DNA of 64,000 bases. Source: Ruditapes philippinarum (Eukaryota). Positions 559 through 41,731 of this stretch are shown one piece after another; the stretch's first letter is position 1, and the number at the start of each line of letters is the position of its first letter. The DNA lies in contig NW_026863691.1 in NCBI RefSeq assembly GCF_026571515.1, forward strand, positions 372,001-436,000. Reading direction: 5' to 3'. Under the pieces are notes generated by a model. It was not told the origin of the DNA. It made no database searches and saw only the letters and a list, made by a program, of their open reading frames with translations. A program made the position numbers and the translations under genes.

Positions 559-3500
559 TTAATCCATCGTGTGCCTGACTGCTATTTGGTCGTTGTTTTT
601 GTTCCCTACAATCTGTTTATTGTGTCTCATATTATCATTATTGCATACATTGTCTGTTTTCTTTGCAGTTTGAATTATCACAACTTCTCCCTTTTTGTAG
701 CAACCGCCACCATTTTGAAGACAGATACTAGGCCAAACAACTTCGTAGATGGTACCTTCTTCTTTCATCGGATCTATAACTGGCTGTTTTGGTGAGTATA
801 TTCTAAAATGTTCAATACATTCCGAATGGTTTCTGCCAATAACATCAAAATCTAGTCTTAATGGAGGGTTTGAAACTATTATCAACCAGCAGCAATCGAT
901 ATATTTGTCGAAAAACTTTTTCAAATCATTGACTACCTCTGCTTTATTTGCCCCGACATCGAAAGCACTTATTTCTTCTGTCGTCTTTAGTTTTAACCAT
1001 ATTTCCTATAAAAGCAGAGAAAATCGCAAATATCAGGTTCTTGCAACTGTACACAAAAAATTAAGTCAGATCAAACCGGCTTAGCTGCCCTCTTGGTTAA
1101 CGCAGCGCCCAAACACTTATATTATATTCATAGAAAACCAGCATTTGCTGATGAATAGAAGTAAAAACCACAAGAAAGCACTCAAGAATACACAAAGAGC
1201 GAACAAATGCTATTATCCCTTTCCAACAAAATTTTCAAGTAAAGTTCTAGAATAATTTTCTTATGGAGCGTCAAAAACAAATAACACATTATTTTAGCTT
1301 GTAACAAAACATTTCCTATTACTCACAATTTTTCATGTAGATTTTCATAAGTCTAAAGTCTTTTTGTAAATTAAAAACTGAATTATACATAATACGACAA
1401 TAATGATAATAATAATAATAATAATAATAATAAAATTTCTAAAGTTACTTACATGTACCAGTCTATTGCGTACTGCCTCTGTCCGGGCATATTTTCTTCG
1501 TAAAGAAAATAGTTCTGGATTCTAAAGAAACATGTAAAATAAATGTACATTACTATTACTTCTTAAACATAGAATATAGTACTTAAAATTAGATACATTT
1601 TAATTTTGGAAGTATCAAATCAATCCAAGCTTTTAGTTTTTAGAACTTAATATCTTTTTTCCCGGTTGGGTTTTACGTCGTACCAACGCAATATAGGTCA
1701 TAATTATGGCGATTTTTCAGCTTTACTGGTACAGGAAGACATCATGTGTCCAATTGAACATTATTTCAGGCACAAACGAGCACCGATAGCTTTGTCAAGT
1801 GAAGAAAATCTTTGAATTACCGTAAGTTTTAGAAAGAAATCTTACATCTTCTTGAAGAGGTGTTGGTTCATTTTCAGTAAGCAAGAAAAACAGACGAATC
1901 TGAGAATCAGCAGCTTTTCCACATTCTTCATAGACAAACTAAAAGTATTCAAATATACAGATAATATAATTCAAAGTAAAAAGCCAATAACCTTTCACAA
2001 AATGAATGAAATAATAAATGAAAATGAAAAACAATTTACAAAAAGATTTATCAAAACAACTTCTTTTCAACCTTGTTACTTTACACAAGTTGGTTTAAGC
2101 TAAAAATACAGCATATTGTGCTCTTATCCTTTCATTACAATGGAATAATTCATGTTTATACTTTTTAAAATAAATATATGTTTATACTATTTTATGATTC
2201 CATTTTTTTTTTCTATCATATATCACTATAATACTTTGCCATATACATGGAAGTATTATTTCTAACAATCGCAACTTCCTGGCACTTTCCGTCAAACTTC
2301 GGATAACAACCTCGAACACAATAGTAAGAATACGCAGAACGGTCTAACCTACGCTAAGAAAACTAAACATGTAAACAAAAAGTGATTTAATGTTAGGAGG
2401 TGATTGACTAAGTTTACGTCAGTATATCTAGTAAAAGACCAACTAAATTAAGTAAATTTATAGAGAAATAAAAGTAATCAGTACATTTTATATAGTTATG
2501 ATCATAGTTGTTGAAAACGAAAGTAAATAATGCTTACAATAATTCGTATTTGGTTATAATTGTACATCAGTGGGCATTTTTGAATTGATAATGATTGTCA
2601 GACATATTTTCAATCATTATTTTACCGAAAGGAAAGTCTATTCATATTATATTTAGGTTATTATGAATAATAGCCGATATGTTCCGATTGCATTTTTAAT
2701 GGGCTTACAATTATCACGATTACCTTCATCATCTGTGTTAGGTGATGTATAAGTTCAAGCTCAGTTAATGAGACGCCCAGCTTTCCTAGTCGTCTAGACA
2801 GATAAACCCAGTCATTGTCATAAAGTTTATAGAACTTCTCTGTGATGTTTGAGTTGGAGAACTCGTCATTTAAATTTTCAAAATTTCCTTTCTCTTCCAT
2901 AACCTTTGCCATTTCAGTTGTTATAGCATGCGACCTGTAAAGGATTTTTTTGTTTGGTTTTACGGCGCACCAACACAATTTACTTCATAAGGCGCCGAAA
3001 CAAGAATGATAATTTTGTCTAAACTCGGGTGATACAAACTACCTGCTGAAGCTAAGAGATGCTTCGAAACTATTAAGTCGCCTCTTAGGCTCGGTCCCTG
3101 TAATTCTGATGCCTCAAATCATTAAAAGCAGCCCTAAGGCGACAAAGAAAGGGGTGGGGGCAGGAATGGGGGTGGTTGTAAAGGAATTAAAGGCTTTGTT
3201 TGATAGACTTCCTATGCTGTAATGAATCGTTATCATTACACTTACATTGAAAACAACTGACATGACAGACTAATATTGCATGACGAAATAATTAAAAAAA
3301 TGAAATTAAAAAAAAATCATATCTCGGTCTTAAATGTTTACCCAAACTTAAAAGTGATTGTGTCTACTAAAACAACTACTTGGAAAATTAATATATCGGT
3401 GAAATTACTTTATGAGGAAAGATTTTAATTTCCTAAGTAGGTCGGTCATGATTTCCCGTTAATGATCTCTTTAAGTAATTACGTATTCTTCAATTTTAGT

Positions 3501-4656
3501 TTCAATTTTGCATTATGTTCTTCGAAGTACTTATTATCATTTTATTACCGCCTTTCAAGTTCACGAATTCGTTGTTTAGCCTTTTTATTTGTCACTTTTA
3601 AGCGTTCTACTTCACATTCCCTATCCTTTATTATTTGTTCCATTTCATCAATCACATCCATTCCGCCAATTTCTTCCCTCTGAAATATAATATAGTAAGA
3701 CAATCATTTATGGAAGAATCACGTTAACTTTTATAACTTTTTTTAAATAATTTTTATTTCCGTATAAATTCTTTTTATGTCCTGTTTTAAGAAATACTAA
3801 ACGCGTTAATATAAGGTCTAAATTGTTGAGTCAGACATCCGAGCATGTTTATACTGTTGACTTCTCAGATATATATCTTTCATACTAAAATCCTAATACT
3901 ACAAAAAAATTGCAAGAAAGTTATATAAAACGAAGCCGAGAAAGAGTAATATATTGAATGGTGTGAAAAAAGTGTTTTGTTTATTCCAGTAAATTATTAG
4001 TATGTATTTTACCATCACCAATGTCTAGGGCAACATTTATTTGAAGAAATGTTTATATTTGTTATATGCTAAAAAGTCTTTACATTGTACATTATTCGGT
4101 ACTTCCAAATTTCTAAACTGTATCTTAAAAAGTTCAAAAAGGTAATAACCAACCCTTTGACGTTCATGTTTGTCATGCCTTTTATGTTCACTGTAAAAGA
4201 ACAAATGTTTAATCAGATCTTTGTTGTTTTTAATTCCTTAATTACGTTTAAGGCATTAATAAAATATCACCATATTAAATATCAGAATCAAATTCAAGCC
4301 GCTGTTTTGAATAGGCTACATGATAATATTAATATAGGAGGAGCTTATACACAATATCATTGTTATGGGTATTTTTTTTTAAAAGTTTAAATTGAATGGT
4401 GTTTGCAAATAAATGATACAAGATATTTAATATTCTAATCCCTACTTTAGCTACTGCTTAAGTTGACAATCTCTTATTGAAGGCATGCAAATTTTCAATC
4501 TAGAGAGTCACTTGTAAGGTTCAAATACCTTGAGCTTTCTTCCACCAGTGTCGTTCCGCCCAAACCACCGTGATCAGAAGCTGAACATGGGCCAATCTCA
4601 TCTAATAAAGCTTGAAATTGGTCAGTGTCCTTAACACAATCAGCACGTAGTTCCAT
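559..4656 (-). CDS. MIEAP/SPATA18-domain protein, paralog A (~371 aa, 7 coding exons)
   Basis: Exons 4529-4656, 4154-4190, 3549-3679, 2724-2934, 1846-1938, 1453-1521, 559-1005; GT/AG boundaries and compatible phases give one open frame. Coiled coil (EMEQIIKDRECEVERLK...ELERR), Mieap-type motif NITEKFYKLYDNDW, C-terminal CCWLIIVSNPP...EVVWPSICL...KKGEVV. The 5' exons are less certain than the last five. Confidence 0.82.
1665..1787 (-). mobile_element. SINE-like element fragment in a paralog A intron
   Basis: Reverse-complement similarity to 16286-16455 (gacgtaaaaccc tail, ataggtca, gaagac, ttatttcaggcac). Confidence 0.65.
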
Positions 4657-4827
4657 ATCTGTAATACATGCGTAGTAAATGCATAGAGTACATGACATAC
4701 TGACGAAAAATACAATGGTATGAATTCCATAATTAGGCAGTGTGGTTATTACAAAATAATGTATTTTATTTTAACAACATCACTTCCTGCATTAATATGT
4801 ACTTTATAAAGAAAGTGTAACTTAGTA

Positions 4828-4960
4828 CGCCCGCTTAGCTCACATAGGATTAGTAATCTAGGTTGGGTGGTTCGATCCTCAATCGAGACGACATTTATCC
4901 GTGACAATTCTCGGACACTGAGTCGTATGGTCATTTGTCTCTCCGCTGAGACAGATATCA
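4828..4960 (+). mobile_element. Degenerate tRNA-derived SINE head
   Basis: GCCCGCTTAGCTCA (A-box-like) followed by GGTTCGATCC (B-box-like); no full cloverleaf. Confidence 0.45.
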
Positions 4961-7900
4961 TATCATTTGGAATTATTAGTCGGTCACTTACGGTGAAAAC
5001 GATAATTTCTAGTTAGTTATCCAGGAAAGCGTGTTAGTTGGACAACCAAATTAAAATTAAATATTTGATATAAGATGATACTGATATTTGATGTCACTCG
5101 TAATTGTATCAAAGTAAGTTATCCAGATTACAAAGATAAAAAAATAAATAAAAAACAACAAGAACAAAACAACAAACAACAACAAAAACACTTCCTTTAT
5201 CGTATTGTATCTGTAAGATAATTGAATAATTGAGAGTAAATAGTGATAGTAAATATTAGATATAATTACTGCTACATTAAAGTTACAGATGACATAAAAA
5301 CTTACCATAGAGTTTACCTTTTGTTTTAATAATCAAACCAAATTTAATATAAATTGAAATGTACATACGATAATAAACTTCCGCTTTTTGAAGTATGCAC
5401 AAAGTGGTCTCTCTTGCATTTGATAAGACATGTATTACAAGTACCCGTACTTCAATACATACAACAACCATTTCAAGTACCCCTATTGTTTTTGGGCACA
5501 GATGCAGTGTGAATACTGTGTCAGCTTAATATCGTAAATAAATCGTTTGTTAATTGAACTCTTGAATATAATCTTTTTCGGCCGAAGGCCGTCTGATTTC
5601 ACCTTGACTTCCGCTAAAATTAACAGTAAAGAACTGAATATAGACAGAATTTTCATTGGTAGCCTGTCTGATTGACACTTTAGAAGAGCTTCCGTTATAG
5701 GTAGAGGTTTGTTCGATTGCGCGATGGAAAGAAGTGTTGGGAAAAGATATCAGTCAGAGTAAAAATAAAAACACAATAATGATATTTTCTAGATATTTAT
5801 ATTAACAACTTTTCAATAAATATATGAAATTAAATATGACAGATCGCCTTATTGATACTATTGTGTTCGATAGGGTTTCCCTTTCTTAGCTGTTCTAGTC
5901 ATTATTTTCTCTTCTCGAACCGGGCATAAGACGATTGAAACGAATTTTTGGCTAATTTACAGTTGCAAAATTCTCCGTGGAATTAGTGTACAGTATGTAC
6001 TAAATCTTTGTTTTATTGTAAATCCCTAAATAATAATTTTGTATCATATTGCACTAGATATGAGTATGATTTTTTAAAGCAGCTGTAAATCCATTAAAAG
6101 TAATTGGGGCGAGGGGGTGTCAGTTGTGTCATTTTGATATTTGACATTGGCGTGTCCCAAGAGTGGATATTGTTTTCGAGTCTTATATATTTATAACAGC
6201 GGTCTAGATATAGAGAACAGGAAACTACATTACTTTTATATTAAGTCTTGTTCTTAATTATGGGGGTCGTCTTGAGTACGGTTTCAACTTTAAATTGTTT
6301 CATATTTTAATGACAAAGCAAACTTTCATGTAAATTCTATATTATTGGACAGAAAGAAACCCAACGGAAAGATGTTATGAATTTTATATAAAAAGTTGTA
6401 CGCGTCTTATGTCAAAAATCCCTAAACAAAAGTTATGGGTTCACACAATGTGGATGAGTCATGTACATATTTGTTCGAAGGAAGTCCCATTTAAAAAATG
6501 TAATACTCACTACAACAAGTGCTAAATGCTGTGAGGAAGCCGTAATAAGTTGCTCGTACATCAGTGATGCTCTTTTTTCTGTAATCTGAAGCGCATTCGG
6601 TCAAATGTCCCACCACAGCTCGCTTTCTTCGAAGTAACTGGGAAGTGTATTCACTTAGCTGCATGCTAATTCTGGTCCATTTGATATCATTAATTTTACT
6701 TGTCAACGATTGAATAACGCTTAGCAAATTCAATGGTGCATGAGTTATGTTGCACATTACTTTATATCTAATAAACAGACTCACTGAAACCTTCGTTTCT
6801 GATATGATTGATTTTGATTTGATATCATTGCTTGAAGAACTTCCCTTTTCCAGAGGTTTTATACTCAAAACAGCGTGTGTCAGTTGCTGTGCGGCAGCCA
6901 CAAAAAGCCGCCTTGTTCTTTATCTCAGTGTGGTTATATGTTTCTGGTTCTTCGGGATCATTTGTTTTTTATACCTTTAGTCTTGTGACGATTAAAGCTG
7001 GTGCTAAGTTGCGTGTGAGGTGTTACTCATTACATTTTATCTCGTTAACGACCCCAATTATAGCGTGACTGCAATTTACAATTGTTTTTTTTTTCTTAAT
7101 GAAAGATCTCCTCTGTGCAGAGTTTCAGTATATAAACATTATTCAATTCAATCAAAACAGATTTGTGAAAGCTGATTACTTGTTCATTATAATACAAATG
7201 TCAATGGCACTGGCGTCATTGACAACAAAGAGCAATCGGTATATATATATATATATATATATGCCAATGATATTATTATTATGCATGCAATAGAAATAAC
7301 CGTTCAATATAAGATGTAGAATGCTTTTTTATTTTCTGTAAACTTTTCATTACAGAAAATCAAAAGTATATAGTACTCATTTTCTTTTCTTCAGATTTTT
7401 CTTTAAAAATATTGTTGTTAGTATTTATTTTTAGCTTTAGTTCTCAATCCACAAGAACGTTTCCTTAAGGTGAATATAGGTCGAGGTAAATTCATTTCAA
7501 AAAAGCGGCTACACTTTTGAAGACTATAGCACGCTATACAACTCTACTGATAAGGGGGGATAAAGGTTGTGGACATCAATACCCAGGCATATATGAAAGA
7601 ATATGAAAGGTACATCAATTCTATAAGCACAACCGCTGTTGTTAATCTATCGAATACTCAACTAACGGAAGTATGTTCAGGCAATATCAAATAATTGATA
7701 CGAAAAAACATTATCAACAACAACAATAAAAAACCAAAAACAACAACAACTTATATTCTGCATGGTGTTTTATTATAATACTACGGTATATCACGTGCAC
7801 AATGGTTAAGTACTTGCATTGAGTTAATAAAGCCAATAAATGTAATCGCTTCATGTAAAGGCAATCAAAAAGAAAAGCAAACTACATGTTATACATGTAT

Positions 7901-8047: not shown

Positions 8048-11000
8048 CTATGCCTGTTTTCCCCTTTTGACAACAACAACATCACCTTTCATATAAATTG
8101 CAGGACCTTCTTCGAGTTGCACACATGGCCAAACAACTTCACATATTGTACCTTCAATTTTAGTCATATCCTCGACAGGTCTTTTAGTAGAATACATTTT
8201 AAAGTGGTCATCACAGTCACTAAACATTTTACCGACGACGTCAAAATCTAGAACCATTGCTGGATTCGATACTGCCAAAAGCAAGCAACATTCAATGTAT
8301 TCGTCCAGAAAAGTCTTTAATTTTTCCCTTGCTGTACTGGTATTATCCCCGGAGCATAATGCACCCACATCCTCTGTTTGCATAAGCTTATCTGTAATCT
8401 CCTGAAATTATCATTTCTTGCATAATTTCTTAAAAAGTGTAATTACGTCATTTTATAAAACGTCAATAAATACACTGTCGGTTTGCTTAAGAAAGTACAT
8501 GCAAATTAAACAAAAAATTTAAATCAAATAACAATATGTTAGTTAAAAATTTTAATAAGAAAGGCATATTCTATTTTCATTTTTAATCATGAATATTGAT
8601 AAATTACAATGTATATGAATATTTCAATAAAGTTACGAATAATAAGATTTTTTGACATCAGAAAGGTGTTGAATGAAACAATTAATATTCAATTACCTGA
8701 ACAATTCTTTGCTTTACATAATCTCCAAAAACATATTTCTTGAACATAATTTTGGCATCTGCCAGCTGAGAAGGGATGAAGTATATTTTATTAAAACATA
8801 TATTCAAGAATTCATTGTTAGAATTGTCGTATGTCGTATGTTTGTCAGACTTGTAGTGTCAAAAAGCATATGCTCTTTTGAATTAATTTTTATGTCGACA
8901 AAGAATTGCAAATAAGTAACTAGGCATTATCTATTTCCTATTGACTTTTGACAAGACACATCTATCAATTAGAATGTTAGGTCTTCTTTTGTATTTGAAA
9001 TGGACCAGAAAAAATAAACAATGAAAAGGTTGAATCTGATTTTTTTTCGTTATTTTACTGTGAAAATAGAACTGAAATAGTTCTTACATCTTCATCTATA
9101 GGGTTGTCTTTTAGACTGTTGACATGCAGAAGCACACATAACTTCTCTTCTGCCAATGTTTTACACTCTTGATATGCCATCTACAATTAAGAACAAATTC
9201 TTGTTATTATTGAAACTGAATCATAAATATTTTGATGCTATAAATTACATAATTTGCCATATTTACTTACTTATTTTACTTTTCTTATTAGGTTATAAAC
9301 GTATCTTTTTTATAAAGAACATAGAACCAACACAACAAGGCAACAAAACAAAGTAAAAAAATGACCACAGGTCTCTGAAAACATTAGTCTGGGAGCAACA
9401 TTTAAACGTATTATTAACATCTTGAACATTAAATAAGTGAAAGTGAAATATTTTGTTTATAAAATACCTTCATTAAATTCGTGATATGTGATATTCTCTC
9501 CACTTCAGGCATGGCTTGACAATTTTTTAACATCCACTTTATCAATAATACCCATTTTTGAGAGTACAAGCATTCAAATCTTTGGGATAGTTTCGTATTA
9601 TTTACTTCTTCATTTACATCCTCAAAGTTTCCTTTTGAATCGTTTATTCTTGACATTGCTCTTGTCAATGACATTGATCTGTGGACATAATAAGACATTT
9701 TGATAAGGTATTACCATCCAAATTTAAAATTCTTACACGAATATTAATTTATCAATCCATGTTATTAAGATATGGTGTTATGTTTTTTCCACAATGATAT
9801 TGGTATATGTTTAATTATTCATACCGTCTTCTAAATCGTCTGTTTCGATATCAACTTTGTACTTATGTATTTTGCATCAACGAAAGAAAGAAAAGAAATA
9901 AAAGCATTTCCTAAAAATAAAAATGCTTTATTCCGAGCTTACCGATTTTCCAAATCCTTGTTCTTTTTTCTTTGTTGTTCACATTCCTTCCTCAGATGTT
10001 CACATTCTTTTTCAAGTGTTTTATATTGTTCTTGTAATGCTTCATTTTCATGAGTTATTTGTAGCAAATTTGCATCATATTCTCGCTTTAGTTCCTGTGT
10101 ATGGTAGGCTTCATTCGGTCTTTCATTTTGCTAAATTTGTAAAATAGATTATATTATAACAGCCACATAATTCTAAAGTATATGTTTTTTGTTGTTATTA
10201 AATGGTTTTGATATCATTCTACACTCAATGATTGAATAGTTGGTAATAATATTTTGTCTCCGAATCTGAGGTCACTAGATGATAAAGGAAAAAAAATAAT
10301 GAACCATTACAAGAGTAAATAAAGTCATACTAAAAACAATTGTTAAAAATGTAGAAATGAAGCTGTAAATATTTTAACATACCCTTTCTAATATACCATG
10401 TCTTCCACCACTTTGGGCAGTATTTCCTTCATATCTGTTTCTAATGTAAAACATTAAACCATTTATACATACACTTCATTATTATAGAATAATATCCTGT
10501 AAGTATAATTCAAAAACATGTCCGCTTTCAATTTTAATCATAGTAAATTTAAGTACCTATATTTTGCTATGATTTAAAAGAAACCATATAGAAACGATTA
10601 TATATTTCAGAAAACAAGAAAGAGCTCCTTCCATCTCTTACCGACTTTGTAATTCATATTCTTCTCTTACATTCTCTGGCTGGCCAACATTATTGCTTCT
10701 TCTCCCGGTACTTTTATTTTGCTGAAAATGCAAAAAGGATATTACAGTTAAAACAAATAATACTTTAACATATATTAGTTATTTTTGCTTTCTCTCTCCC
10801 CAAGAAAATCTATATTCTAGGGGAATCTGAGCAAAGTATTAATGATAATAATGAAAGAAATGTCTAAAACATTCGATTATTAATGTATCATCAAAAATAG
10901 GTGATAAAATTTGTAAATTATAAAAAATTTAATTGCAATGGTTTTATTAGGCCAAAGGACACCATACCTTTTCTTCATTCCGTCCATTTTGAACTGTTTT

Positions 11001-11476
11001 TTCTTTAAACCTGTTTGCACAATTTAAAAATAATATTTGATTCGACAAAATATAAACATGTTTACAATTAATTGTAACCAAATAGATACGTACACATTAG
11101 CATTACCGTATTAACCGATTCAATATGTACACATGAACAACCTTTAAATGTAGGGCAAGTTCACACTTTTTTCTAACTTATTATATTAAAGCTTATAACG
11201 GTTTAAAATTTATATTTGTTTATCAGTTACTTGAATTCATGCTTTTACACAACTATAACAAAGTTTTGATTTGTCAATGACAAACCTCTCTAGCTTATAT
11301 TAGATTAACTGATTTGTGAATTGTAGTAAACATTAAAAATTGAAAACGAAAGTATAATACGAAACAATTACGTACGAATTTTGTATATCTGGTACATTGG
11401 ATGATGATTGTCCATCCGTTGCACTGGAAACAAAAGCAACTGCATATTCATTTCCATTAATCCAATCTGGCTTCAT
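8048..11476 (-). CDS. MIEAP/SPATA18-domain protein, paralog B (~398 aa, 9 coding exons, optional 15-nt microexon)
   Basis: Exons 11376-11476, 10968-11010, 10642-10721, 10383-10440, 9943-10130, [9825-9839], 9468-9678, 9088-9180, 8697-8765, 8048-8401, all phase-compatible. Motifs KLSQRFECLYSQKW and ECCLLLAVSNPAM...EVVWPCVQL...KGDVVV. Confidence 0.85.
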
Positions 11477-16911: not shown

Positions 16912-19900
16912 TCACACATCTGTAACCTTTTTATTTACCGACGAATTTTCATCAACGGCTGTACGGTTCCCTTTGTCTTCCTTTGATACAAAACAAGTGC
17001 AATCAACAATGCCGGAATCTTCAACGGGTGTCGAACCTATTGATACTAAGAGGGCGTCGCCTTTTGTACAGAACACGGAACCGTCGGCATAGTACACACA
17101 GGGCCACACAACCTCATATACACTGTTCGTATCTTTTGTTTCATCTTTGATACGCTCTTTCGCTGAATAAACTTTGAAGTGTTCCTTACAATACTGTTTT
17201 CCAACAACATCAAAGTTCAAAGCTAGACGCGGAGTGGAAACAACCATCACCCAGCAACAATCTACAAATTTGTGTAAAAATTCCTGTAGCATTTTCTTTG
17301 CTTCTTCAGTTTTGTCCTCTATTTGAAACCATGGTATTTCTTTACCAATAAACACTTTTTCTAACACCTCCTGCATATAATTAGGTGAGATATGTTATTG
17401 TTAAGACATGTGAGAAGCAAGAATTATAGATATATAAATCTAAGGCATTTTCTTGAACTTTTATAAAGCAATATATATTTAAATAGCTTCTTAAAGAATA
17501 CTGAATGCTGTTAAAGTAGTAAGTTCAAAAGAAATATTTTTCAATGTCTTTATAAAATATACGCACCTGACTTATCCTTGCCCTTGCAGTATCTTTGATT
17601 GCATATTTCCTTCTCAATGCATACAGTTCTTCATGCTTAATAATACCAATAAAAGATTTTTTAACATTACAAAACATTCATAGTTGCTACATTTGGTAAG
17701 AAAAGCAACAATAATTCAATTTTTACACTGTATAATTTCTATTATTTTTTTCATTAGTATCTGCCTGGCTGATAAAAGACTATAAATCTATTTTCATTTT
17801 TGGGTTAAAAAAGCAAAACAACTATAGTTCGAGTAATGTAATCGGATGTCTGGATTTCAGCAGATAACAATCTTTATAAATACCTCTTCATGGGATGGAC
17901 TACCCTGTGATTCACTCAAAAGCATAAACTGACGGAGTTGTTCGTCTGCTAAACAAAGGCATTCTTGATAACTTTCCTAGAACCAAAAGACAATGTTCAC
18001 ATTGCTTTCAATCTATAAAACGTGATAGAATATATAAAGAATCAAAAGATCTTTTAAAAACATTTAGACATCTCATTACCGTTAAAAGAATAGGTAATTG
18101 TAAATGCAAAATTATAAGCATAATTAGCAAATGATAGTAAATATATCAGTAAGACAAGCCTGTTGGGAAAACGATGATAAAATAGTTGAAACTATTATAA
18201 CTCTTTTTTTCAACAAGTATTGAATCGAATCTCCAAACCTTTAAAAGTAAGTTTATACTGAGTCATGAAATGATAATACCACTTAAACGTTTCAGTAGAA
18301 AAACATAAAAATAAAAAGTTACCACCATTTTCAGTAGACGTCAAAATGTCTTTCTATTTATATGTTATAAATATTTTTAACATATAAATATCCGGAAAAA
18401 AGTATCGCTCGGAAGCATTTAAAACAGCAAAACATGAACATTGCAGACTCGGTTTAATTGAGTATGTACATGAGGGATAATGAAAAATGTAACACTCCCC
18501 ATGTCCCATAGCATAGCTTGAACTATGTCAGTTAGCTTTATTTTAATGTAATAGGTAAATCATATTGAGATATTGTTCCTTGTAAAAGTACCTTCATCAA
18601 TGACGTTAGACTCTGAATTATTTGATCTTCCAATATTCCCTGTTTTGCTAGCCAAATCGATAACTTTGCCCAATCATTGCTATATACATTGCTGAACTGA
18701 GTTATGATATTAATTTTCGACAAACTGTCATTGGTACTTTCAAAGGCTCCCGATGTGTCCATCACCTTCGCCATATGTTTAGTAATTTCACTTGAGCTAA
18801 AAATTGAAGGAAAGATACAATATTTATAACAGTAAAAATTCCAAAACATAATTAAAGTGACTTACATTTTAAACTACTTACTTTTTCATTAAATACACGC
18901 TGAATACTGTAACTTTATTTGATAAAACAAAAATGTAATAATAACCAAAAGTAAAGCACAAAAAATATGTTACCGTTTTTCTGCTGTTTTACTTCTCTCT
19001 TGAAACTTCTTGATAATTAATTGTTGGTCTTTGATTTCATTTTGTTGGTGTTTGATTTCATTTTGTAATTGTTTTATTTGGCGTTCCAATTTATCGTTAG
19101 TATCAAGAACATCATCGAGGACTGTGTTTTGTTCTGTCGGATTTCCGTTTTTAGCCATCAGTTTCTTTTATATAGAATATATAGAATAAAACGAAAAGTA
19201 TGTTAATCTTGCAACACACATTTTATACGACTATTCTTTCTTTATATAGCTTCAGGACTAAATTGGTATCCAGGTTTGTAGCTATCCTGTTGTTTTATTA
19301 AAATAATTATAAAAAGAATAATAAAATAGAAAACCTTGAAAACCAAACAAAACATAAGTTAATAAGAACAAAATTTGATCAGAATTTTAATACCTGTCTT
19401 AATTCCCACTTTAATCATTTAATTAATATTTTCATATTTTACATATTGGCGATAAAGAGTGTATACGAATTTAATATTGGGTTAAATTGAACAACTTACA
19501 AGAACAATATGTCTGCAAGTGTGCTATATAATTACTTACAGATTGTCCTCTGTTCTGTTGTGATTTTTTTTCTATCCTGAAATTTAATTGTAAGAAAACT
19601 AATCAATATCAAGTTGTATATCAAAATCAAGTGCTAACTGATATCAGAAAATAATCTTTCAATGTATTTTGCTGGTTTAACGAGCCTTCATTTCAATAAA
19701 ACATTGATGTAAAGATGAATTGGAATTTTTCATATTGAACACATACATAAATGATATTTTTACTTATTTCTTAGTTTGTTTTAATTAATCTTTTATTACG
19801 TTGATAAGAGCACATATGTTTCTTTGTGTTAACTTTCATACTATTGACCTATCTTTTATTGCAAAGGTGATTAGACATAAAAATTATCTATTTCCCCTGT

Positions 19901-20383
19901 ATGTAAATTACTATAGGTAACGTAAACATTCATATACATGCTCTTTTACTTACCACTTTCGATTTTGAAATGGTCTACTTTCGATTTTGAAATATTCTAC
20001 TTTCGATTTCAATTTTTGTTTTGTTTCGTTTTCGAATATTACTTATAAACAAAATACTGACTTTAAGGAGTGCATTTAGGTAGACAAGTAACAATAAAGA
20101 GATACTATTAACCCGTTCTTATTTCCTTTGTCAGTAGGAGCTTCAAGGACACAGTGTGATGCATTGGAAGCATTTATTAGACCTTCTACATACAGTCCTA
20201 AAATTATTAAAAGAAATTTTCATTATAAAATTATAAAAATAATGAATATATATGCATTAATTTTTCTGTTTAACATATTCAAGATTTAAGTCACAAATGA
20301 TTATAAGCTCATGTAAACTCAGTCATAAATATACTAATACTTTACTTTACTTTACTGGAGTTGAGGTCGCAAGACGTCATCAT
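16912..20383 (-). CDS. MIEAP/SPATA18-domain protein, paralog C (5' end uncertain)
   Basis: Exons 20356-20383 (tentative), 20113-20197, 19540-19576, 18974-19164, 18592-18796, 17884-17976, 17567-17635, 16912-17370. Motifs IITQFSNVYSNDW and DCCWVMVVSTPRL...EVVWPCVYY...KGDALL. The start is ambiguous because of the poly-C run at 20396-20413. Confidence 0.78.
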
Positions 20384-21159
20384 CGTCTTCTATAACCCCC
20401 CCCCCCCCCCCCCATGGTTTTGTACCCAGTTCTGATCCGGTATGGTGGTATACTGTGAAATGTTGCAACAGTAATCTACAGTTATCAACAGTAATAAAAA
20501 AAGTATTACCTTCATATAACATCGCATATGACCCTATTAATAATCACTTATAAATATTTACTTAGAGACAATAAAATACCAATAAGGAACCGTATACTTA
20601 ATATTTTGTATGATATTTAATTATTAAAGCGCCCCCTATCGTATCATAAACCAGTCGCAACTTCTCGGTCTCTTCCGTCAAGTTTCCGATAAAGGATCGA
20701 GTACGATAACGGTATTACTTATATAAAGCGTATAAATTATTACTGGGATTTATTTACTTTAGTTATTTCATTGTATCTTGTGAAAGTCGACTTAATTTAA
20801 ATAAACTTATAGATATGTAGTAAAAAAAAACGTTAATCATATTCTAATTACTATCACTAAGAGTGTACCTGATGACAATACGTCCTTGTATGTTTACAAT
20901 TATTATCCTTATTGTTCCTTTTATCTAAAACGTTTAACTGTTATCCTAAAACATAGATGATATGATTTTCATGCAGTTAGTTCATGTGTAATACGAAACG
21001 ACATATTTAGAAAATGTGTTTCTTCTGATTTATTAAGCATTGAAACTATTTTTAACGATGTAATTAATAATAATTTAAGCTTAGATAGCGGTATTGACTC
21101 TATATCTGCTATTTTATACAAAAATACATATGATATTTTCGGAGTTACGAAAGTTGTTA

Positions 21160-22031
21160 AAACTTTTAAGTACAGACGGAAATTTAAAAGTCAATGGTTT
21201 GACCAAAATTGTGAGCGTGAAAGAGAGAATTTTGTTCATGCAAATAGATTGTATTCAAATTGTAGATCTGCACTTCATAGAGAAAATCTGATTAATAATA
21301 GACGATTGTATAGATTAGCTAAGAGGAGAGCAAAGACAAAATATCACTTAGCTCAAAAGAATAAAATGCATAATTTATCAAAAACGTCTCCGAAATTGTT
21401 TTGGAAGGAAATAAAAAAGTTTAGAAAGAAAAGTCCCGATTGTATAAAGTGTCGAATGAAACGTTTTTTTAACCGATTTCAATAATTTATTTAATAGCCA
21501 AAATGTATTTTCAAATGATGATGTTGAACAGTGTATTAATAGTGATGATGTTATATTACAACAAGTTGATATGTCAGATAAAGAAATTACAATAGAGGAG
21601 GTATCTAAGGCTATTTCTTCGCTAAATAGGAATAAAAGTGGTGGTTATGACTTACTTTTACCAGAAATAATTATTGAATGTAATGATTTATTATCTCCAA
21701 TTTTAAGTAAAATTTTTAATCATATTTTCACAAGTGGATCTTATCCAACCTCATGGAATGAATAAAGCAATTAATTATTGTACCTGTCCCGAATAAAACG
21801 GATCCAAGTGAAGTAAATAATAATAGGGGTATTGCGTTTTCAAAAAATTTCTCAGTAATCCTAGATAATAGACTTCGAAAATGGTCAGAGGTCAATAATT
21901 TCTTAACAGATAATCAGTATGGATTTAGGAATAGTAGAAGTACTATTGACTGCATATTTGTTCTAAATTATGTTATTGATAAGATTATTAAACGTGATAA
22001 AAAGAAATTGTATACTGCATTTGTAGATTTC
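21160..22031 (+). mobile_element. Degraded LINE ORF2 fragment (linker to start of RT), RTE-X-like
   Basis: Broken frames encode WFDQNC, PKLFWKEIK, EITIEEVSKAISSLNRNKSGGYD, YPTSW, QYGFR..RSTIDCIF and KKLYTAFVDF; several stops and frameshifts. Confidence 0.85.
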
Positions 22032-32534: not shown

Positions 32535-35500
32535 TTAGGTTTGTGAAAATGCATCTTTTGTTTTATTTGTAATCACAATTGCGTCCCCTTTAGTATAAAG
32601 TTCTGATTCAAATTTTAGGTGGACCGATGGCCAAACAACTTCATAAACTGTGCCTGCAGTTTTGGTAGGGTCGTCTATATTTCTTTTTAGAGATAAAACA
32701 GAAAATTGGTCTGCACACTCGCTGTACATCTTGCCAACTACATCAAAGTTGAGAGACATTGTAGGTCTCGACACTGTCATAAGCCAACAACAATCTATGT
32801 ACTCGTCTAGAAATGTTTCTACTCTGTCTAAAAGACCGTGTGTTTTGCTTTCTTGACAGTGTTCAAAGAGAGTCTTCTCCACATGAACTTTATCCTTTAC
32901 AATCTAGATAAAAATAGATTCAACACATTTGATTTGCATGAAAAGTCATAAAAAGATGTTTGAAGAACCAAAAAAAAAAAATCAACAACAAAGATTCCTT
33001 TCATTTTGAGTAATGGCTTGATAAAACACTACTTCGCGCAAAAAATGTTATAACATAAATGTGTTTAACATACATCTTGTAAACGATATTACAATTTAAA
33101 TGCTTTTGCTTTCCATGTTACTTACATTCTTTACTTGGAGTCTCAAAGTATCAGTCTGTGCGTACTGTTTTCTAAGAGCAAAGAGTTCGGGATGCTGAAA
33201 TATAATTTTCTAAAATCTTAATTAAACAAAGGACGTATATACATCTATTTTAGCCATATATTATATCAAATTTGATAAAAGTTAAAATGCATGCATTTCA
33301 TTGTAGAAAATAAATTTATTTTAGACCTTTTTACCTTTTCAGATAAATTAAAATCAAATTGTAATTTTGACAAATTAAGACAATAATAGGTATTTTTTTA
33401 CATAAAATATCAAGCTTTTAAAAAAGTATTTCTTAAACAGAAAATCAATTGTGATGGCATCATTTACCTTCTCATACATTGGTATGTCGTCACTTTCGTT
33501 AAGAATCAAAAACTGCCGGACTTGATTGTCAGCCATGTTGAGACATTCTTTGTAGCATGACTTAAATTTAATAAAAAAACATGTGTATTATAAGATAACC
33601 ATTCATAAAACCTTTGATGAACGGTATCATGTGTTTCATGGAAAGTATTACTTATACATCAAAATTTACCTACATTGTGAATGTGTTAAGTTTATGGAAT
33701 GATAAAAGAGAATTAAACATCGTGATTATTAATACATATACTTATATTAATAGAAAATAAAATACAAAATACAAATATATCATACAACTTTTATAACCAC
33801 TTTCAATTTATTTCAGTTTTATGCTTTAATGATATCATATCATTCGTTCAAATAATGCCTATTAATTCGGTAAAATAAGTCCTGCATAACAAAATGTATC
33901 ATTCATTCTCAAATCAGAAAACGAAATATTGCAACTAAATAATATTCAAATTGATTCAAAACTGTAAGATTTAATAATGAATGAAAGAGGACCGACAAAT
34001 AACCTTTTTCCTTGTCACAATAAACTATGATTTCTTAAACTTTATAGCATTGTGTTTACGATTATATATGTATGAATAATAAGACACAATAAAAATAAAC
34101 TGACAACAATTATTCTACCTTAATCAGCAGTGAAAGGCATTGAATAATCTTAACTTCTGGAATCTGTCTGAATGTTTGCATCATCCATTTGCACAGTTGA
34201 ACCCATTTATCATCGTATAACAATTTGAATCTTTTGGCAATTTTTGAGGTGGAAAGGTCATCGTCACAATTTTCAAAATGGTTGCTGTTCTTCATCTGCC
34301 TCGACAATAGTTTGGTTAACTCATTTGTCCTAAAACGTTTATTGCAAATGCACTAAATACTTCAGTTTTTTTATTATCAATATGCAGTTGCATTTTGGTA
34401 AATTGACGTATCAATTTGGGCAATTAAAAAAACATAAGCAACAATTCAAAGAAATGCTAATGGCTTCTTTTAGACATTTGTTTTAATTATAAAATATCTT
34501 TCGACTGATATGTGAATATAGCTTTTACCACATTACAACTGATTATAACCAACATTGTGTGGTATGAAAAATAAATAACAACAAGTCATACATATATATT
34601 ACATGAATCACATTAAAAAGGGGGGGAACAAATTGCCTATTATATCCAACTTTACCGTCTTTCTATTTCTTTCTTTTCCTGTCGTAAGCGAATATTCATC
34701 TTTTTAAGCATTTCAATTTGTTTGTCTTTCTCTTTATCACTCATGTACTTATCATTCACTGGACGATCATCTACTGTGTTCTTGTACCTCTCTTTTTCTG
34801 CAGATGATCTTCTGTAATACACGATGTAATACACGAAACACATTTAAAAAGGTTTTAAATGAAAAACATATAACATTATTTCAATTCAATTTCCGTTTAC
34901 AAGTTTCTCAAACTGTATCGATTATGAAAACAAGTTTTCTGTCACCTGTATCGTCCATTTCGATAAACAAAATAGGATTCTTGTCAGTGTTGTATCTCTT
35001 TTCTTTAAATTACAATAGAACTATGTCTTTACAAATAACGCATAAGTTGTTATCATTAACTTAAGCGATATGTGCTAACAAACTTGCTTTCATTTACTTT
35101 ATAATTGTTTTGATGACGTATATAATGTGCTGTCATTGTTCTGCTCATGTTCAGTGGGCCGAAAACTTATAATCGGTCACATGACACTCATAATCAGTTG
35201 AAATCATAGACAATTTCGTTACTATATATAGTAACAAGTGTAATGGAAATCAAAACATGTACAAGCAAGAATATGATATTTTGTAAGAATGAACTTGTTA
35301 TATATGCTAAAACATGCAATTAGTAATACCTATAATCGCGGGAAGAACTTGAATATCCATCATCCCGATATCTTGTACCCGGCGGCGATTCTTCTTTACG
35401 ATTGCTAATTTCAATGTCATTTATTTGCCATTGATGCTTTTCTGTACTAATTGGTGGTTTTGACCTGGCATCAATTTCGGCATCAACTTCCACCCTTATA

Positions 35501-36615
35501 TGCTGGTCATGAATACTATTCTCAGCTGTTAATTGATGTGTTTGTTTTTCCAAGGATAAACTATCCCTTGAAGACACATTAGAAGTTTTGGGATTTACAT
35601 ATGATTGCGGATCTCCCTTGGCAAAGCCAGATATATTTTGCTGTTGTTGTTCTTGACTTGAATTGTTTAAAATATCTGACACAACTGAAGAGTGTTGTTT
35701 TACATTGTTTAAATATTTCGTTGGACTATCATAAATGATTCTGTCACGTGAATTGTCTGAAACATTTTCAGACCTAACATCATCATGCAAATGTGATTGG
35801 TGTCTGGCATTATTTCTATACGTTTGGTATTCGTTGGTTTCATTGCCATTAGCACATGAATTGTCTTTATACTTGTATTCACCTATATCGCCATATGCAT
35901 TTGTTTCGGTTGTAAATTTCTTCGTTCCCTTTTCTCCTGATTGCCAATATTGCGTATGAATGTCATGTTCATCGTTTTTATATAGATGCTCATCAACATA
36001 ATTTGAACTTGATGCTCTATGGTGTTTTGCACTACTACAGCTTATATGACTGCCAGATAGTGTGGAAATAGTGTTACTTTTTGGCATTTGATTAGTGTAT
36101 GTTCTAGAGCTAAGCGTTTTGCTTTTATGTGTCTCTCGACTTTCATCACCATGTATACTTGCTTTTGGAGAGAGGAGCCTACCACCACTCGTGTGATGAA
36201 TTCTATTTGTATCCGAATTATAATTAGTTATCACGTCTCTGTCTGTGCCTACAGAAGTATGTCTCATTGAACCGTTATTCAGGCGTGAAAGATTGCCTAC
36301 GTCTTGCATTTCACCACCATGATAACCAGTGTGATATGATTGTGAATTGATTTGACTTCCTCGTTGGTCTGCTTTTCTTTGAGAGTATGGCAAGGAAGTG
36401 GCAAAATTACTTTTTTCTCTTACTTTTAAATTGCTATCATAATTTTCGAATGCTTGGTCTGTATTGGAAGAAGGTGCTTTAACACTTCTAGATAAGTTCC
36501 TTCCCGAACTAACATGACTATTATCTGAAAAAGGTCTATGATGTCTTTCTCTTCCTATAGGGTTCAAAGGGTATGCATACACATTAGAACGGCTGTTATA
36601 ATGAGATCCTGCCAT
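32535..36615 (-). CDS. MIEAP/SPATA18-domain protein, paralog D, long S/H/N-rich N-terminus (~727 aa, 6 coding exons)
   Basis: Exons 35330-36615, 34656-34811, 34119-34329, 33468-33560, 33126-33194, 32535-32903. Motifs KIAKRFKLLYDDKW and DCCWLMTVSRPTM...EVVWPSVHL...KGDAIV. A likely non-coding first exon has its donor at 36968/36969. Confidence 0.85.
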
Positions 36616-36968
36616 TTTGTCACTGCCTTTGACTACTGAAAATATGTTAGGTTCATTAAAAAAGTGCAAACATTTTTATCTAAATTTGAATTGTGTGTAG
36701 TTAGTTTGTATTGAAATTTAGCATTCGTATGCAAATAAAGATAAAATATGATAGTGATAACAAACACAAATCCGCACTTTATGTGTATGAACAATAAAAG
36801 AAGCGTGTAAACATACAACTCAATATACACAGTATAAGTATAAGCTACACAGTATACAAGCTACAGTATATGTATGGTATAAAATCAGTGTCAAAGGATG
36901 CTTGAAATTCAAAATATATATGAAATATATGTACATGGTACATGTCATGATAAAATCGGTTATCTTAC

Positions 36969-37697
36969 CTTGAAAAAGAAACTTTGGAACACTTCCAAAA
37001 TAACGTTACATGATTGTAAACACACGTATCCAAATAACGATATCGAATCAATTGTTCGTGTACACTACAGTCACGCTGAGCAGACGAATCATTAGTTAAC
37101 AGTCTGATTTCGATGTAGAACTAAACCTCGTGTTATAATTCACGCAACAACTCTTTAGCAAAGAATATTTTTTGTTATGCTATTTCTTATATGCAAGTTG
37201 TTAAAATTTGATCAATGATACAACAATTTAAATTTAACCCACACCAGGTACGTATTACATACGTACCTGCCAACACTTAACTTGCAACTACAGTACATAA
37301 GCTTATTTTAAAATAAGAGTCGATGGTTTAATGTCACTTATGCCAACATGTATATATTTTGATCAGTGTACAGTATAAAATCTTATTTTTTTCTAATATT
37401 ATGTACAAGTTTTATATAAAGGTTGAATTATAAAAATCTTAAAAGGGAAGCAGGCATAAAGAATACTTTTTTAAGTATATCAACTATACGACGTGTAAGC
37501 TATTTATACCTTATCTGGTTTTCCACTTTTCGTTTATGCGTAGATTTGCAGAAAATGTAATTTCCAATATTGCAGCATCAAGTTTCTCTTTTAAAAAGAG
37601 CATAAGTCTTTGTAATATTTGAACGGATTTGTTAAAATATGAATAAACATTTATAGTGGAATTTTATATAGTTACAGATTTATTTAAAAACATCAAA
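36969..37697. promoter_or_regulatory. Putative bidirectional promoter / 5' UTR region shared by paralog D and HSPA12
   Basis: Divergent genes. Minus-strand donor at 36968/36969, plus-strand donor-like CAG|GTACGT at 37247/37248, acceptor TTACAG ending 37677 just before the HSPA12 ATG. Confidence 0.5.
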
Positions 37698-40600
37698 ATG
37701 ACAGATAATGATACAGGGATTGATGCAGGGCCAAGTCGAGATGACCCTGTAGATGCCGACAGCATTACTGTCGATACGATTGATTGTGTAAGTAACAATA
37801 TTGTATTTTAACGAAGCTGCAGGTGCTCATTTTACTTTAAATGTTGAAATTATATAACATTTTGTTATCGTTTATTTTTTTATCTTGTTTCGTTTTTTCA
37901 TTGGCAACAGTCAAAAGTAGGTTACAACGTTCTACAACTCTTATATTTATAACATAACTAATTTAATCATAGCTCATTCTCTAACAATTTTTTTTAAAAT
38001 AGTTTAGCTGTAGATAGTGTATATTTATGTCTGAATTGAATGCAAGATCGATCGAAATAGCATATACATGTAGTTTGATATTGAATAATTCGGTTACCAA
38101 TCATTTTTGAATGCTAAACTATGTTCTGTTTAGATATCTTTATCTGTGTGATAATATATACGTCTGTACCTATAACATACTTGATAAACAATTTGCAAAT
38201 GGCTTTGACTAACTGGTATGATATCGGGCAATTTTACACATTATAAAAAATACCACAAAGAGAGTAGAATGTTGCATATTTAAACAAATCGTTTCAAGGT
38301 CAGCTGTGTGTATAGCATAATTATAACTATCTTAACAAAAAAATTTCCTTGTTAACAAGTGTAGTCTTGACAGAGGTTTATTTACTGTACAGTATACTTA
38401 TTAATTCACAGTGCGATATGAAAAATATAAATATGATTTAAGAAGATATATTCATTTGAAACAGGATGAAGAAATCACACCCCGTTTAGTAATAGCCATC
38501 GATTTTGGGACATATGCGTGTGGTTATGCCTTGCAATGGAGATCCGACTATGAAAATGCAAACTGCCTCGAAAGCATCAAGGTTCCAACAAAATGGTCTG
38601 CAAGTGGATTTTGCACGAGAAAGACACCTTCATGTATACTACTAAAACCTGACAAAAGCATTGCCGAGTTTGGGTATAAAGCTGATTTTCAATTCAGCAA
38701 AAATGAGTCGCTTCCTGAGAGAAAGAGACCAAAAGACTGGAAGGACTGGTATTTCTTTCGCTTTTACAAGATGCGACTCTACACTGGAGAGGTAAGAATA
38801 TGATATCATGTGAACAATCGAAATAGAAAATAATTAACAGCATGCATGCAACAGAAGATAATTTGTATCATTGTGTTAATTACCTAATTCTGTGAAAAAT
38901 TTGATTCCACGGAAGCAGTGAAACACAATATTATATCGATATCGCAAACTCGGTTACGTGAAGCAGTATTTATGTCTAAACTTTGATTAAATTTCTAGGT
39001 CTGACTGCATGAGGTATTTAACTCCCGTTAGGTATTTTGCTTATTTTTTCAAAGTCGGTTTTTTGTCCTTTTGTAGGAACTTACAGTGGATACTCCAATG
39101 GAAGCCGCAAACGACAAACATTTGCCAGCAGTTGAGGTACTGGCAAAAACTATAGAGTATCTGAAGGATGAAGCAATCAATAAACTACGAGAAGATGGTG
39201 TTGTTTATCCAGAGGAAGAAACCAAATGGGTTCTTACTGTTCCTGCTATTTGGAATGACCCAGCTAAACACGTTATGCACGAGGCGGCAGAAAAGGTAAT
39301 TATCTAAGTGCTTGCACATGAATCAGAAATTTTTTGAATTTCTTGCAAAACGTTTTCATCATAAATTTATTATGCATATGATGTTTATAAAGAAACTATA
39401 TTATGATTAAATAAATATATCCATTTTAGCTGGAATAGAATTGAACTGAAAATGTAACTTTATTTGCCAGGCTGGAATAAATGGGAAAAACTTGTCAATA
39501 GCACTTGAGCCTGAATGTGCTGCAATATACTGCACTAAGCTTCCTCTTGATAAAATGGATGTCGCCATTGGCAGTAATGAAAAGACAAATATTGCAGCTC
39601 CTGGTCAAACACTGATGATTGTAGACATGGGAGGTAAAATATGTGGTTCTTTATTTATCGCATCCCTTTTCATTTTGCAGTTAAAAATGAACTGATAATG
39701 AGCATAGCATTGTTGAACAGCATTGTAGTATAACAGTGAACAGAATTGTAGTATCCTACAACATGTTTTACAGGCATTTTTACTTATAGAGATATACAAA
39801 TCTCTTTTCCTTTTAAATAATTTGCCATACCAGTATTCAATTGTTTCATATGTTACACTGTTTTTCTTTGAAGACCGACCGTCAATTATTTTACTGTTAG
39901 TGTAAAGGATTAACTATTGCTATACTATAATCTGTGGTTTATTTTTGTCGTGATCATTCTGTATCAAACCGGTTAAGTTTTATTATTACATCTCTTTTAG
40001 TCCCCCATTAAAAGAACTACATTCAAACCACATTGGGTCAATGTAATAAAAATCCAATGTGAGTGGAAAATGCTTGTGTATGTCCATGTGTGTTTGTGTG
40101 CGTGGGTCTCTAGGTGTATGTATGATTGTATGGCCTTCTCTTATACTGTGGGTTGTGGAGTTTAAACATCTTCAAAATCTGGAAGAAGGAAATCCGTTTA
40201 TACAAATGATAACAAAAACAAATGAGAAGAGTAGCATATAATTCACATCTTTGTACTGATTACAGCATTTTGTAAGACATTTTTAACCTCTATCTTCATT
40301 TTCCGATAATTCTACATATCTATAATATATCTAATTTGTCATAATAAGATTGTAAAATGTTTGTTTTATGTTCTAGGTGGAACTGTTGATATAACAACTG
40401 TAAAAATAAATGAAGACAAGACAATGCAACAGGTTTATAAATCATGCGGGGGTCCTTGGGGTGGTACGAAGGTCAATGAAAAATTTGAAATGTTTCTGGC
40501 AGAGTTGATAGGAAGAGAAACAGTCAGAACATTCGTAGAAAAGCATGCAATTGACTACCATGATTTGCGAATGGATTTTGAAAGCAGAAAAAGAGAGGTA

Positions 40601-41731
40601 TTTCTGATGACAATATATTATCATTTTAAAATTTAAAAATCATTGGCTTTAAGACTTTGCATTATTCAAATGCATAAATAAACTATGTATTTAATTATGT
40701 TACTTTGAAAGTTTTCTCAGCATCAAAAAATAAAAATACTTTTATTACAGTGATTGTAATCTTGAGACTTTTCTTTATAAAAAAATATTAAGGAGAACAC
40801 TACCCTCAAATACTTATTTTATTGCATGGAACAAATGTGATCTTTTTGTTTTATATTTTTACCTGGCAATTGTTTGTTTAAACAGATGAAAGGATCAGAT
40901 GATCAAATACCAATCAAACTCCCAGATTCACTCCGACAGTTATGGGAACGTGCAGAAGAAAAAGAAATCGATGAGATTCTTGAAGAAAAGAAAGAATTTG
41001 GAGAAATCGAATTTATGACAGGGCGATTATTCTTGGAAGCTAAAATAATTCAAAGGTTCTTCCAAGAAACCATCGATGGCTTACATAAATATATAAATGA
41101 AGAAGTTTTTGCAGAGGGGTCCAATATTTCAGTAAACTCAATTATATTGGTTGGTGGGTTTGCTGAATCAAGTTATGTAATGCAAAATGTGAGAGAAAGT
41201 CTCCGTTCTCGTAATATTCCTGTAGTGAGGCCTCAATTACCAGAGTTAGCCGTATTGAACGGTGCTGTTCTTTTCGGTCAGAATGAAAAGATTGTAACAT
41301 CACGGGTTATGAGGCATACTTATGGAATTGCAATGACAATGGAATTTGTTCCAAACAAACACAAGGCGGACGAGAAATATGAGTTAGATAACATGATAAT
41401 GGCAAACAATGTATTCAGAAAGCATGTTACTATCGGACAAACCGTTCAAATAAGTGAATGGATTTCTTCAAAGGAATATTACCCAGAAAATGAGAGGGAC
41501 TTAAAAACTACTGTTTTCGTTTTCACATCTGATTCCGAAGATCCTGTTCATACAACAGAAGAGGGATGCAAGTATATCGGCCAGGTTGATGTTGATTTCG
41601 GATATGGCAGAAATTTTACTGCGAGGAAGGCAGTGAAAGTGGAGTTCAAATTTGGGGGAACAGAGCTTAAAGTTAGAGCCATTACTTCGACTGCCAACAA
41701 ACCACACGTTAGATATTTGAAAGTACAATGA
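37698..41731 (+). CDS. HSPA12: Heat shock 70 kDa protein 12-like (atypical Hsp70), ~621 aa, 6 coding exons
   Basis: Exons 37698-37787, 38465-38791, 39077-39295, 39471-39633, 40377-40597, 40886-41731 join in frame. HSPA12-type motifs AIDFGT, KTPSCIL, WVLTVPAIW, ALEPECAAIYC, DMGGGTVD, GGPWGG, LVGGFAES, HTYG, FGGTELKV. No EEVD tail. A versus B orthology cannot be assigned. Confidence 0.93.

Follow-up and report, generated by a model that had tools for sequence, protein, structure and literature searches.

Terminal exons of clustered MIEAP genes in the Manila clam are predicted to form a GrpE-like head, and the genes recur beside HSPA12

What would a domain resembling the head of GrpE, an exchange factor of Hsp70-type ATPases, do in a cluster of clam genes, and which ATPase would it serve? 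We addressed this question in a 64,000-nucleotide stretch of the Manila clam, Ruditapes philippinarum (assembly GCF_026571515.1, contig NW_026863691.1, positions 372,001–436,000 of the forward strand), hereafter the window. Its minus strand carries four paralogous genes of the MIEAP family, the last of which stands head-to-head with a gene for the atypical Hsp70 HSPA12. The initial annotation, based on an alignment by eye, proposed that the terminal exons of the four genes encode a counterpart of the GrpE beta head. The adjacent HSPA12 gene, which was missing from that annotation, gives the MIEAP–GrpE link its likely meaning: the GrpE-like head, together with an HSPA12 pairing that recurs in the clam genome, makes MIEAP a likely candidate for the missing helper of HSPA12.

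All four terminal stretches lie where they had been placed and were identified as minus-strand open frames, each closed by a stop. The genes and the head under study are arranged as follows.

559..1005, minus strand: terminal exon of paralog 1 (P0005, LOC132723025), encoding the last helices, the GrpE-like beta head and a low-confidence tail
667..870, minus strand: GrpE-like beta head of paralog 1 in the predicted model, exon residues 46–113
559..5471, minus strand: paralog 1, 406 residues, 8 coding exons, from the mapped RefSeq protein
8048..11010, minus strand: paralog 2, terminal exon at 8048–8400, 5' end not fixed
16912..20198, minus strand: paralog 3 (P0007, LOC132723027), 383 residues, above the Pfam MIEAP cut-off
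32535..36615, minus strand: paralog 4 (P0006, LOC132723028), 727 residues, the copy facing HSPA12, from protein mapping and transcript contigs

Three paralogs (1, 3 and 4) are identical to R. philippinarum database proteins, which were mapped exon by exon onto the window. Splice evidence came from contigs of two public runs (X1 and X3), presumed to be RNA. Canonical joints were observed for paralogs 2, 3 and 4, including five CT..AC joints for paralog 2 in the X1 and X3 contigs; for paralog 1, the contigs covered the terminal exon, and none of its joints was among the joints listed, beyond which there were a further 132. The raw reads X23 and X24, of low depth, gave zero joints across these genes. 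In both transcript contig sets, the last intron of paralog 3 (17367–17565) has the ends CT..GC, which on the minus strand read as GC-AG. Paralog 4 has a low-complexity N-terminus of 429 residues in a single exon (35329–36615) that is not present in the other three. The N-termini of the MIEAP proteins vary widely, and most contain several acidic residues. The four proteins showed no effector or sensor domain.

MIEAP was the best domain family for all four paralogs. Taken alone, the terminal exons gave weak matches to Pfam MIEAP (E-values between 0.16 and 0.0002). In full-length scans, P0007 scored 35.0 bits, above the cut-off of 27. P0005 (19.0 bits) and P0006 (24.6 bits) fell under this cut-off, with MIEAP still the best family and spanning the domain. 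Additionally, 62 of 76 relatives matched MIEAP at E<=0.01, and P0005 is predicted to comprise a coiled coil followed by a structured C-terminal domain, as in MIEAP proteins. The four-exon alignment contained 25 invariant columns, with 33–48% identity to the paralog 1 exon. The shared C-terminal motif described initially was present in all four exons; its exact written pattern held for two of them, since paralogs 2 and 4 have M-x-L in place of L-x-L.

The fold of the terminal exon was predicted with AlphaFold2 (window 664–1005; 76-row alignment). The model, with a mean predicted local distance difference test score of 91.7, consisted of three helices, one of them at residues 21–43, followed by a small head of six strands across residues 49–111. 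A Foldseek search against the PDB returned GrpE chains at ranks 1–10 (E 0.0034 to 0.052, probability 0.87–1.00), and the first row listed after them had an E-value of 0.46. In VIA, with a comparison set of 48,161 chains, ranks 1–4 were again GrpE (GrpEL1, Z 8.3; 1dkg_B, Z 7.4; 4ani_A, 6.7; 3a6m_B, 6.0). GrpE chains also occupied ranks 1–6 of a second VIA comparison, and the best Z over the comparisons was 8.3–8.6. The head (model residues 46–113) superposed on residues 136–195 of 1dkg_B over 60 residues with a root-mean-square deviation (rmsd) of 2.1; identity to GrpE was 7–15%. PASTA domains, considered as the best match of the head, were rejected, with Z-scores of 5.0 and lower and rmsd values of about 3–3.8, under every GrpE entry. 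The full-length model of paralog 1 contained a 64-residue helix (86–149), a helical bundle (161–301) and the head (307–369), an order of helix, bundle and head that is also the order in GrpE. This model ranked GrpE first, weakly, and the whole-chain fit to 1dkg_B (rmsd 8.8, Z 7.0) was close to the coiled-coil background of 6.0–6.5. The fold prediction and structure search placed GrpE in every top rank with modest scores, and the terminal exon is predicted to adopt a GrpE-like beta-head fold.

The profile alignments set a register different from that of the initial annotation, in which FDV was equated with the FDP of GrpE. The GrpE motif G-x-x-F-D-P-x-x-H began its match at the final G of FDV[VI]G and continued through the residues that follow. 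The correct register is shifted onward by four places, and the FDV/FDP resemblance is a coincidence of letters. At the GrpE G-x-x-F site, the four paralogs have G-RN-H, G-KM-F, G-KQ-Y and G-KM-Y (G-x-x-[FYH]). The register originally given to G[TS][IV]-x-EVVWP and to KG[DE]-x-hydrophobic agreed with the profile alignments. The expected direct profile match of the last residues to GrpE failed. A PDB sequence search with the exon returned nothing, a PDB profile search gave mostly coiled-coil rows with GrpE not among the best 60 of 78, and a homologue search with a deep alignment returned only 6 proteins.

A connection in sequence was provided by bacterial-type loci, obtained by searching with HSPA12 alone. 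Nine such loci contain the HSPA12-like gene in full length together with DNA downstream of it (L051, L052, L081, L095, L099, L108 and L138–L140). In all nine, the next gene ended in a tail that was identified as GrpE-like by eye and by motif; the nine represent about five lineages, because L099 is a repeat of L052 and some are closely related. L050, a truncated HSPA12-like fusion, had no tail, and L103 and L113 break off within the gene. Like the clam proteins, the downstream products (all nine loci except L099) have a helix, a PP-x-L linker, G-x-x-F-D, G-x-V-x-x-x-V-x-P and a K-x-x-V tail, whereas their genes lie on the same strand as the HSPA12-like gene in an operon-like, not divergent, arrangement. 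The tails are closer to GrpE, as they keep F-D-x-x-x-H. In pairwise comparisons, eight tails matched 30 GrpE sequences with HH values of 95.8–95.9% (score 50.5–51.7; best of 40 shuffles, 14.8). The same eight matched a profile of 55 clam MIEAP exons at 90.7% (score 37.4 over 78 columns, compared with 16.2 for the best of 60 shuffles). Their match to the subfamily of the window itself was 19% (score 22.8, compared with 14.4 for the best of 40 shuffles). Furthermore, a hidden Markov model (HMM) made from the bacterial tails alone matched 10 of the 55 clam exons at E<0.01. Pfam GrpE and MIEAP were not significant in the three bacterial proteins scanned. Bacterial copies are rare and patchy: in two sets of genomes searched, 3 of 251 and 1 of 301 had one. 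The relation between MIEAP and GrpE is supported by the structure ranks, and its support in sequence runs entirely through these bacterial intermediates; we consider the MIEAP head very probably homologous to GrpE. An Atlas look-up of P0008 returned MIEAP clusters and, as a lead only, a Mucoromycota cluster at 0.93.

Several bacterial HSPA12-like genes are preceded by a third, uncharacterised gene (L051:3769–4989, L108:4256–5524 and L081:1606–3093), the L051 copy of which had no Pfam match. By eye, this gene seems to be fused to the HSPA12-like gene in the N-terminal part of L050:3432–6290. Other upstream genes (790–1395 in L139 and L140; L138:1–357) resemble, by eye, a vWA domain and the final part of an AAA+ ATPase. 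Such vWA and AAA+ ATPase contexts occur in bacterial conflict systems.

The Hsp70-type partner is suggested by the gene next to paralog 4.

36616..37697, no strand: intergenic spacer of 1,082 bases between the start codons of paralog 4 and HSPA12
37698..41731, plus strand: HSPA12B-like atypical Hsp70 (P0092, XP_060563670.1), 621 residues, 6 exons, from mapping and annotation

P0092, annotated as HSPA12B-like, keeps the Hsp70-type ATPase motifs DFGT, LEPE, DMGGGT and LVGGF at residues 42, 224, 264 and 428, in common with HSPA12A/B. Transcript contigs extend to about 36999 from paralog 4 and to 37662 from HSPA12, and this reach into the spacer suggests that the two genes share a bidirectional promoter. 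Along the contig, five MIEAP genes (minus strand) are followed by HSPA12 (plus), a broken HSPA12 (minus) and three MIEAP genes (plus), an order that corresponds to two divergent HSPA12–MIEAP pairs. The broken copy (G000:C12178:439772–442910, locus L016, minus strand) has 9 stops in its last-exon match and faces the three further MIEAP genes.

The pairing recurs across the clam genome. In the first lists, HSPA12 lay no more than 30 kb from 7 of 74 MIEAP clusters, where 0.39 were expected, and exon maps revealed divergent HSPA12–MIEAP pairs on all seven contigs. In the pooled lists, HSPA12 (140 clusters) lay within 50 kb of 9 of 77 MIEAP clusters (0.99 expected, P 1e-6), a count that includes the discovery locus and two clusters, C3689 and C15439, that rest on search rows only. 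The same test on the MIEAP clusters gave 0 for C1q (107 clusters) and 1 for BIR (119 clusters; Fisher P 0.001). A divergent pair was held by eight of the nine linked clusters. The cluster lists are lower bounds, and about ten long-frame matches in them may be ordinary Hsp70s. Each family forms a large, tandem and fast-diverging set, with at least 143 MIEAP and at least 138 HSPA12 matches; the genome has one ordinary GrpE gene (G000:C1647). In an HSPA12 tree of 42 rows, from which the broken copy was left out, seven linked clam genes fell into six separate groups on an unresolved backbone, which indicates that the linkage does not stem from one recent duplication. A quick MIEAP tree (104 columns) was mostly unresolved, and the grouping of C2299 with C12178 was the single node it shared with the HSPA12 tree; these trees therefore do not show co-evolution of the two families. 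The placement of the linked HSPA12 genes in one clade was rejected; the count of one change behind it only contrasted linked rows with bacterial rows.

Unlinked copies were also recorded. HSPA12 genes on C7883 (two copies) and C5237 have last exons 72–82% identical to that of P0092, two of them with stops, and the 9–20 kb searched upstream of these copies contained no MIEAP exon. No HSPA12 was found upstream of the MIEAP genes on C6225, C9848 and C15145, nor on C3712, where the contig ends. Two MIEAP genes stand head-to-head at G000:C15145:100835–130448, with no HSPA12 in between.

Adjacency in other bivalves is implied by consecutive identifiers, which do not give orientation. MIEAP entries are numbered next to HSPA12 in Mactra antiquata (ACF0H5_014785/6 and 014787) and Mya arenaria (WAR25138 and WAR25137), and Mercenaria mercenaria XP_053378123–129 directly follow HSPA12 XP_053378122. 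No MIEAP partner was identified for the Sinanodonta HSPA12. Among 80 metagenome loci with HSPA12, most of them too short to tell, the clam MIEAP profiles matched one. In this locus, on an animal-like contig, HSPA12 is followed 2.9 kb downstream, on its own strand, by a MIEAP terminal exon (L056:4102–4449).

GrpE dimers wedge apart the Hsp70 lobes IB and IIB by means of a stalk, a short helical section and beta wings, releasing adenosine diphosphate (ADP) (PMC12987570). Clam MIEAP proteins are predicted to share with GrpE/GrpEL1/Mge1 (PF01025), which acts as the exchange factor for DnaK and for mitochondrial Hsp70, the order of disordered N-terminus, long helix, helical part and C-terminal beta head, and their gene likewise adjoins an Hsp70-type gene. 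Unlike GrpE, they are linked to HSPA12 and not DnaK, and exist in more than 140 copies. By sequence they stand outside the GrpE family and are divergent members of MIEAP: Mieap/SPATA18 (PF16026), which also has a coiled coil and a C-terminal domain, is the sole family they match, and the clam subfamily differs from it by an insertion in the head. Gene linkage makes the MIEAP protein a probable physical or functional partner of HSPA12. Our preferred reading, to which we give somewhat better than an even chance, is that MIEAP proteins are GrpE-derived cofactors of HSPA12 that would bind its ATPase domain and speed ADP release. A bacterial two-gene unit of an HSPA12-like ATPase and a GrpE-like gene would have been retained in the clam as the divergent pair. 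The protein would dimerise through its long N-terminal helix, and its head would dock between lobes IB and IIB of the HSPA12 nucleotide-binding domain in the manner of GrpE; this docking would release ADP and thereby exchange the nucleotide. Whether nucleotide exchange is the main job of the MIEAP protein is, in our judgment, evenly balanced.

Several results weigh against this cofactor reading. No Foldseek E-value was below 0.001, PASTA domains came next in VIA at Z 5.0, and a best Z of 7–8 is common in VIA for models without a clear match, for which reason rank order outweighs score. The helical bundle between stalk and head, of about 130 residues, is much larger than in GrpE, and the GrpE geometry may therefore not hold. 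Direct comparison of MIEAP with the profile of 30 GrpE sequences gave HH values of 1.0–4.4%, inside the shuffled scores, and a GrpE HMM matched none of the 55 clam exons. Pfam GrpE had zero matches on the exons and only an E of 0.25 on the P0007 coiled coil. The GrpE words FDPxxHxA and KGY..R..RPA are replaced in the four paralogs by G-x-x-[FYH], VVWP and KG, and the bacterial tails were trimmed around a self-chosen motif, which favours their high HH match to GrpE. As for linkage, 68 of the 77 MIEAP clusters lacked a listed HSPA12 at a distance of 50 kb or less. On 12 further contigs (nine, together with C7883, C5237 and C14358), the regions scanned upstream of HSPA12 genes contained no MIEAP exon. 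The linked pairs are not independent, owing to shared ancestry, and eight MIEAP genes on the window contig share one intact and one broken HSPA12. The available part of PMC10845071, on human Mieap, does not mention HSPA.

The alternative that survives best, which we regard as unlikely, is a GrpE-derived HSPA12 binder serving as a stress or immune switch that activates, restrains or targets the ATPase and is not an exchange factor of a folding cycle. In the clam, the two families resemble bivalve immune families (PMC8382680) in being large, tandem and fast-diverging. The variable N-termini of MIEAP proteins, the rarity of the bacterial copies, the absence of a lid in HSPA12 (PMC13580251) and the presence of Hsp70–GrpE genes in some bacterial conflict neighbourhoods (PMC7159879) are consistent with such a role; the lack of an effector or sensor domain in the four proteins and the intact ATPase motifs of P0092 argue against it. 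The switch overlaps with the preferred reading, because exchange could itself be the switch. We consider it quite unlikely that the head descends from GrpE while the linkage survives as a relic or through a shared promoter, with MIEAP now acting independently of HSPA12, for example on lipids or condensates. Such a loss of partnership would suit the many unlinked copies of both families, the lost GrpE signature words and the work on human Mieap, which points to cardiolipin (PMC10845071). It leaves unexplained why six deep HSPA12 lineages retain a divergent pair, why identifier order places the pair in three other bivalve genera and why bacteria have an operon-like unit; if it served no function, lasting linkage of an Hsp70-type ATPase and a GrpE-fold gene would be difficult to account for. 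Chance resemblance of a small beta domain after a helix to both GrpE and PASTA, which matches the same residues at Z 4–5, is very improbable: the low identity, modest Z of 6–8.6 and insignificant direct profiles would fit it, but every GrpE entry outranks all others, and the bacterial tails match both MIEAP and GrpE well above shuffles and came to light through their position beside HSPA12-like genes, with no MIEAP or GrpE search involved.

Other features of the window were noted. Broken frames at 20961–22085 and 44015–47209 on the plus strand appear by eye to be remnants of reverse transcriptase from non-long-terminal-repeat retrotransposons. Tandem repeat tracts occupy 52135–52831, 55386–56100 and 22700–23200, the last containing many copies of a palindromic GTGCGCAC word. 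Exons of another gene lie at 58992–61604 on the minus strand; its product likely spans the membrane and has a tail rich in proline and glutamine.

HSPA12 function is described as 'presently unknown' and its bivalve expansion as unexplained in a 2026 review, which also states that eukaryotes retained no cytosolic GrpE isoform (PMC13580251). The available part of this review names no HSPA12 cofactor, and that of PMC12987570 mentions neither HSPA12 nor Mieap. Mieap is a p53 target and, in humans, is described as a driver of cardiolipin condensates, in a study that assigns its C-terminal domain to no fold family and gives its orthologues in metazoans alone (PMC10845071). Remote bacterial relatives would extend that metazoan distribution. 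Bivalves have 53.1 Mieap (OG24) genes per species versus 0.6, and 68.1 Hsp70 (OG10) genes versus 4.4; the main text of this study names neither HSPA12 nor the linkage (PMC8382680). In zebra mussel with cadmium, HSPA12A and SPATA18 both rise among many proteins, to which we attach little weight (PMC11036304). The literature searched contained no paper linking MIEAP to GrpE or HSPA12; a classification of the fold may already exist in InterPro, ECOD or TED, which were outside this search. Should MIEAP prove to be a GrpE-derived HSPA12 cofactor, two orphan families would explain each other, and their joint expansion in bivalves would gain a mechanism. Tentatively, and as somewhat the less probable outcome, the whole MIEAP family, human SPATA18/Mieap included, may be a second, non-organellar-type branch of GrpE that entered eukaryotes with HSPA12 as a two-gene ATPase–cofactor unit. 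Mieap would then be the exchange factor of HSPA12A/B, and the bivalve expansions of both families would be one expansion of a single system.
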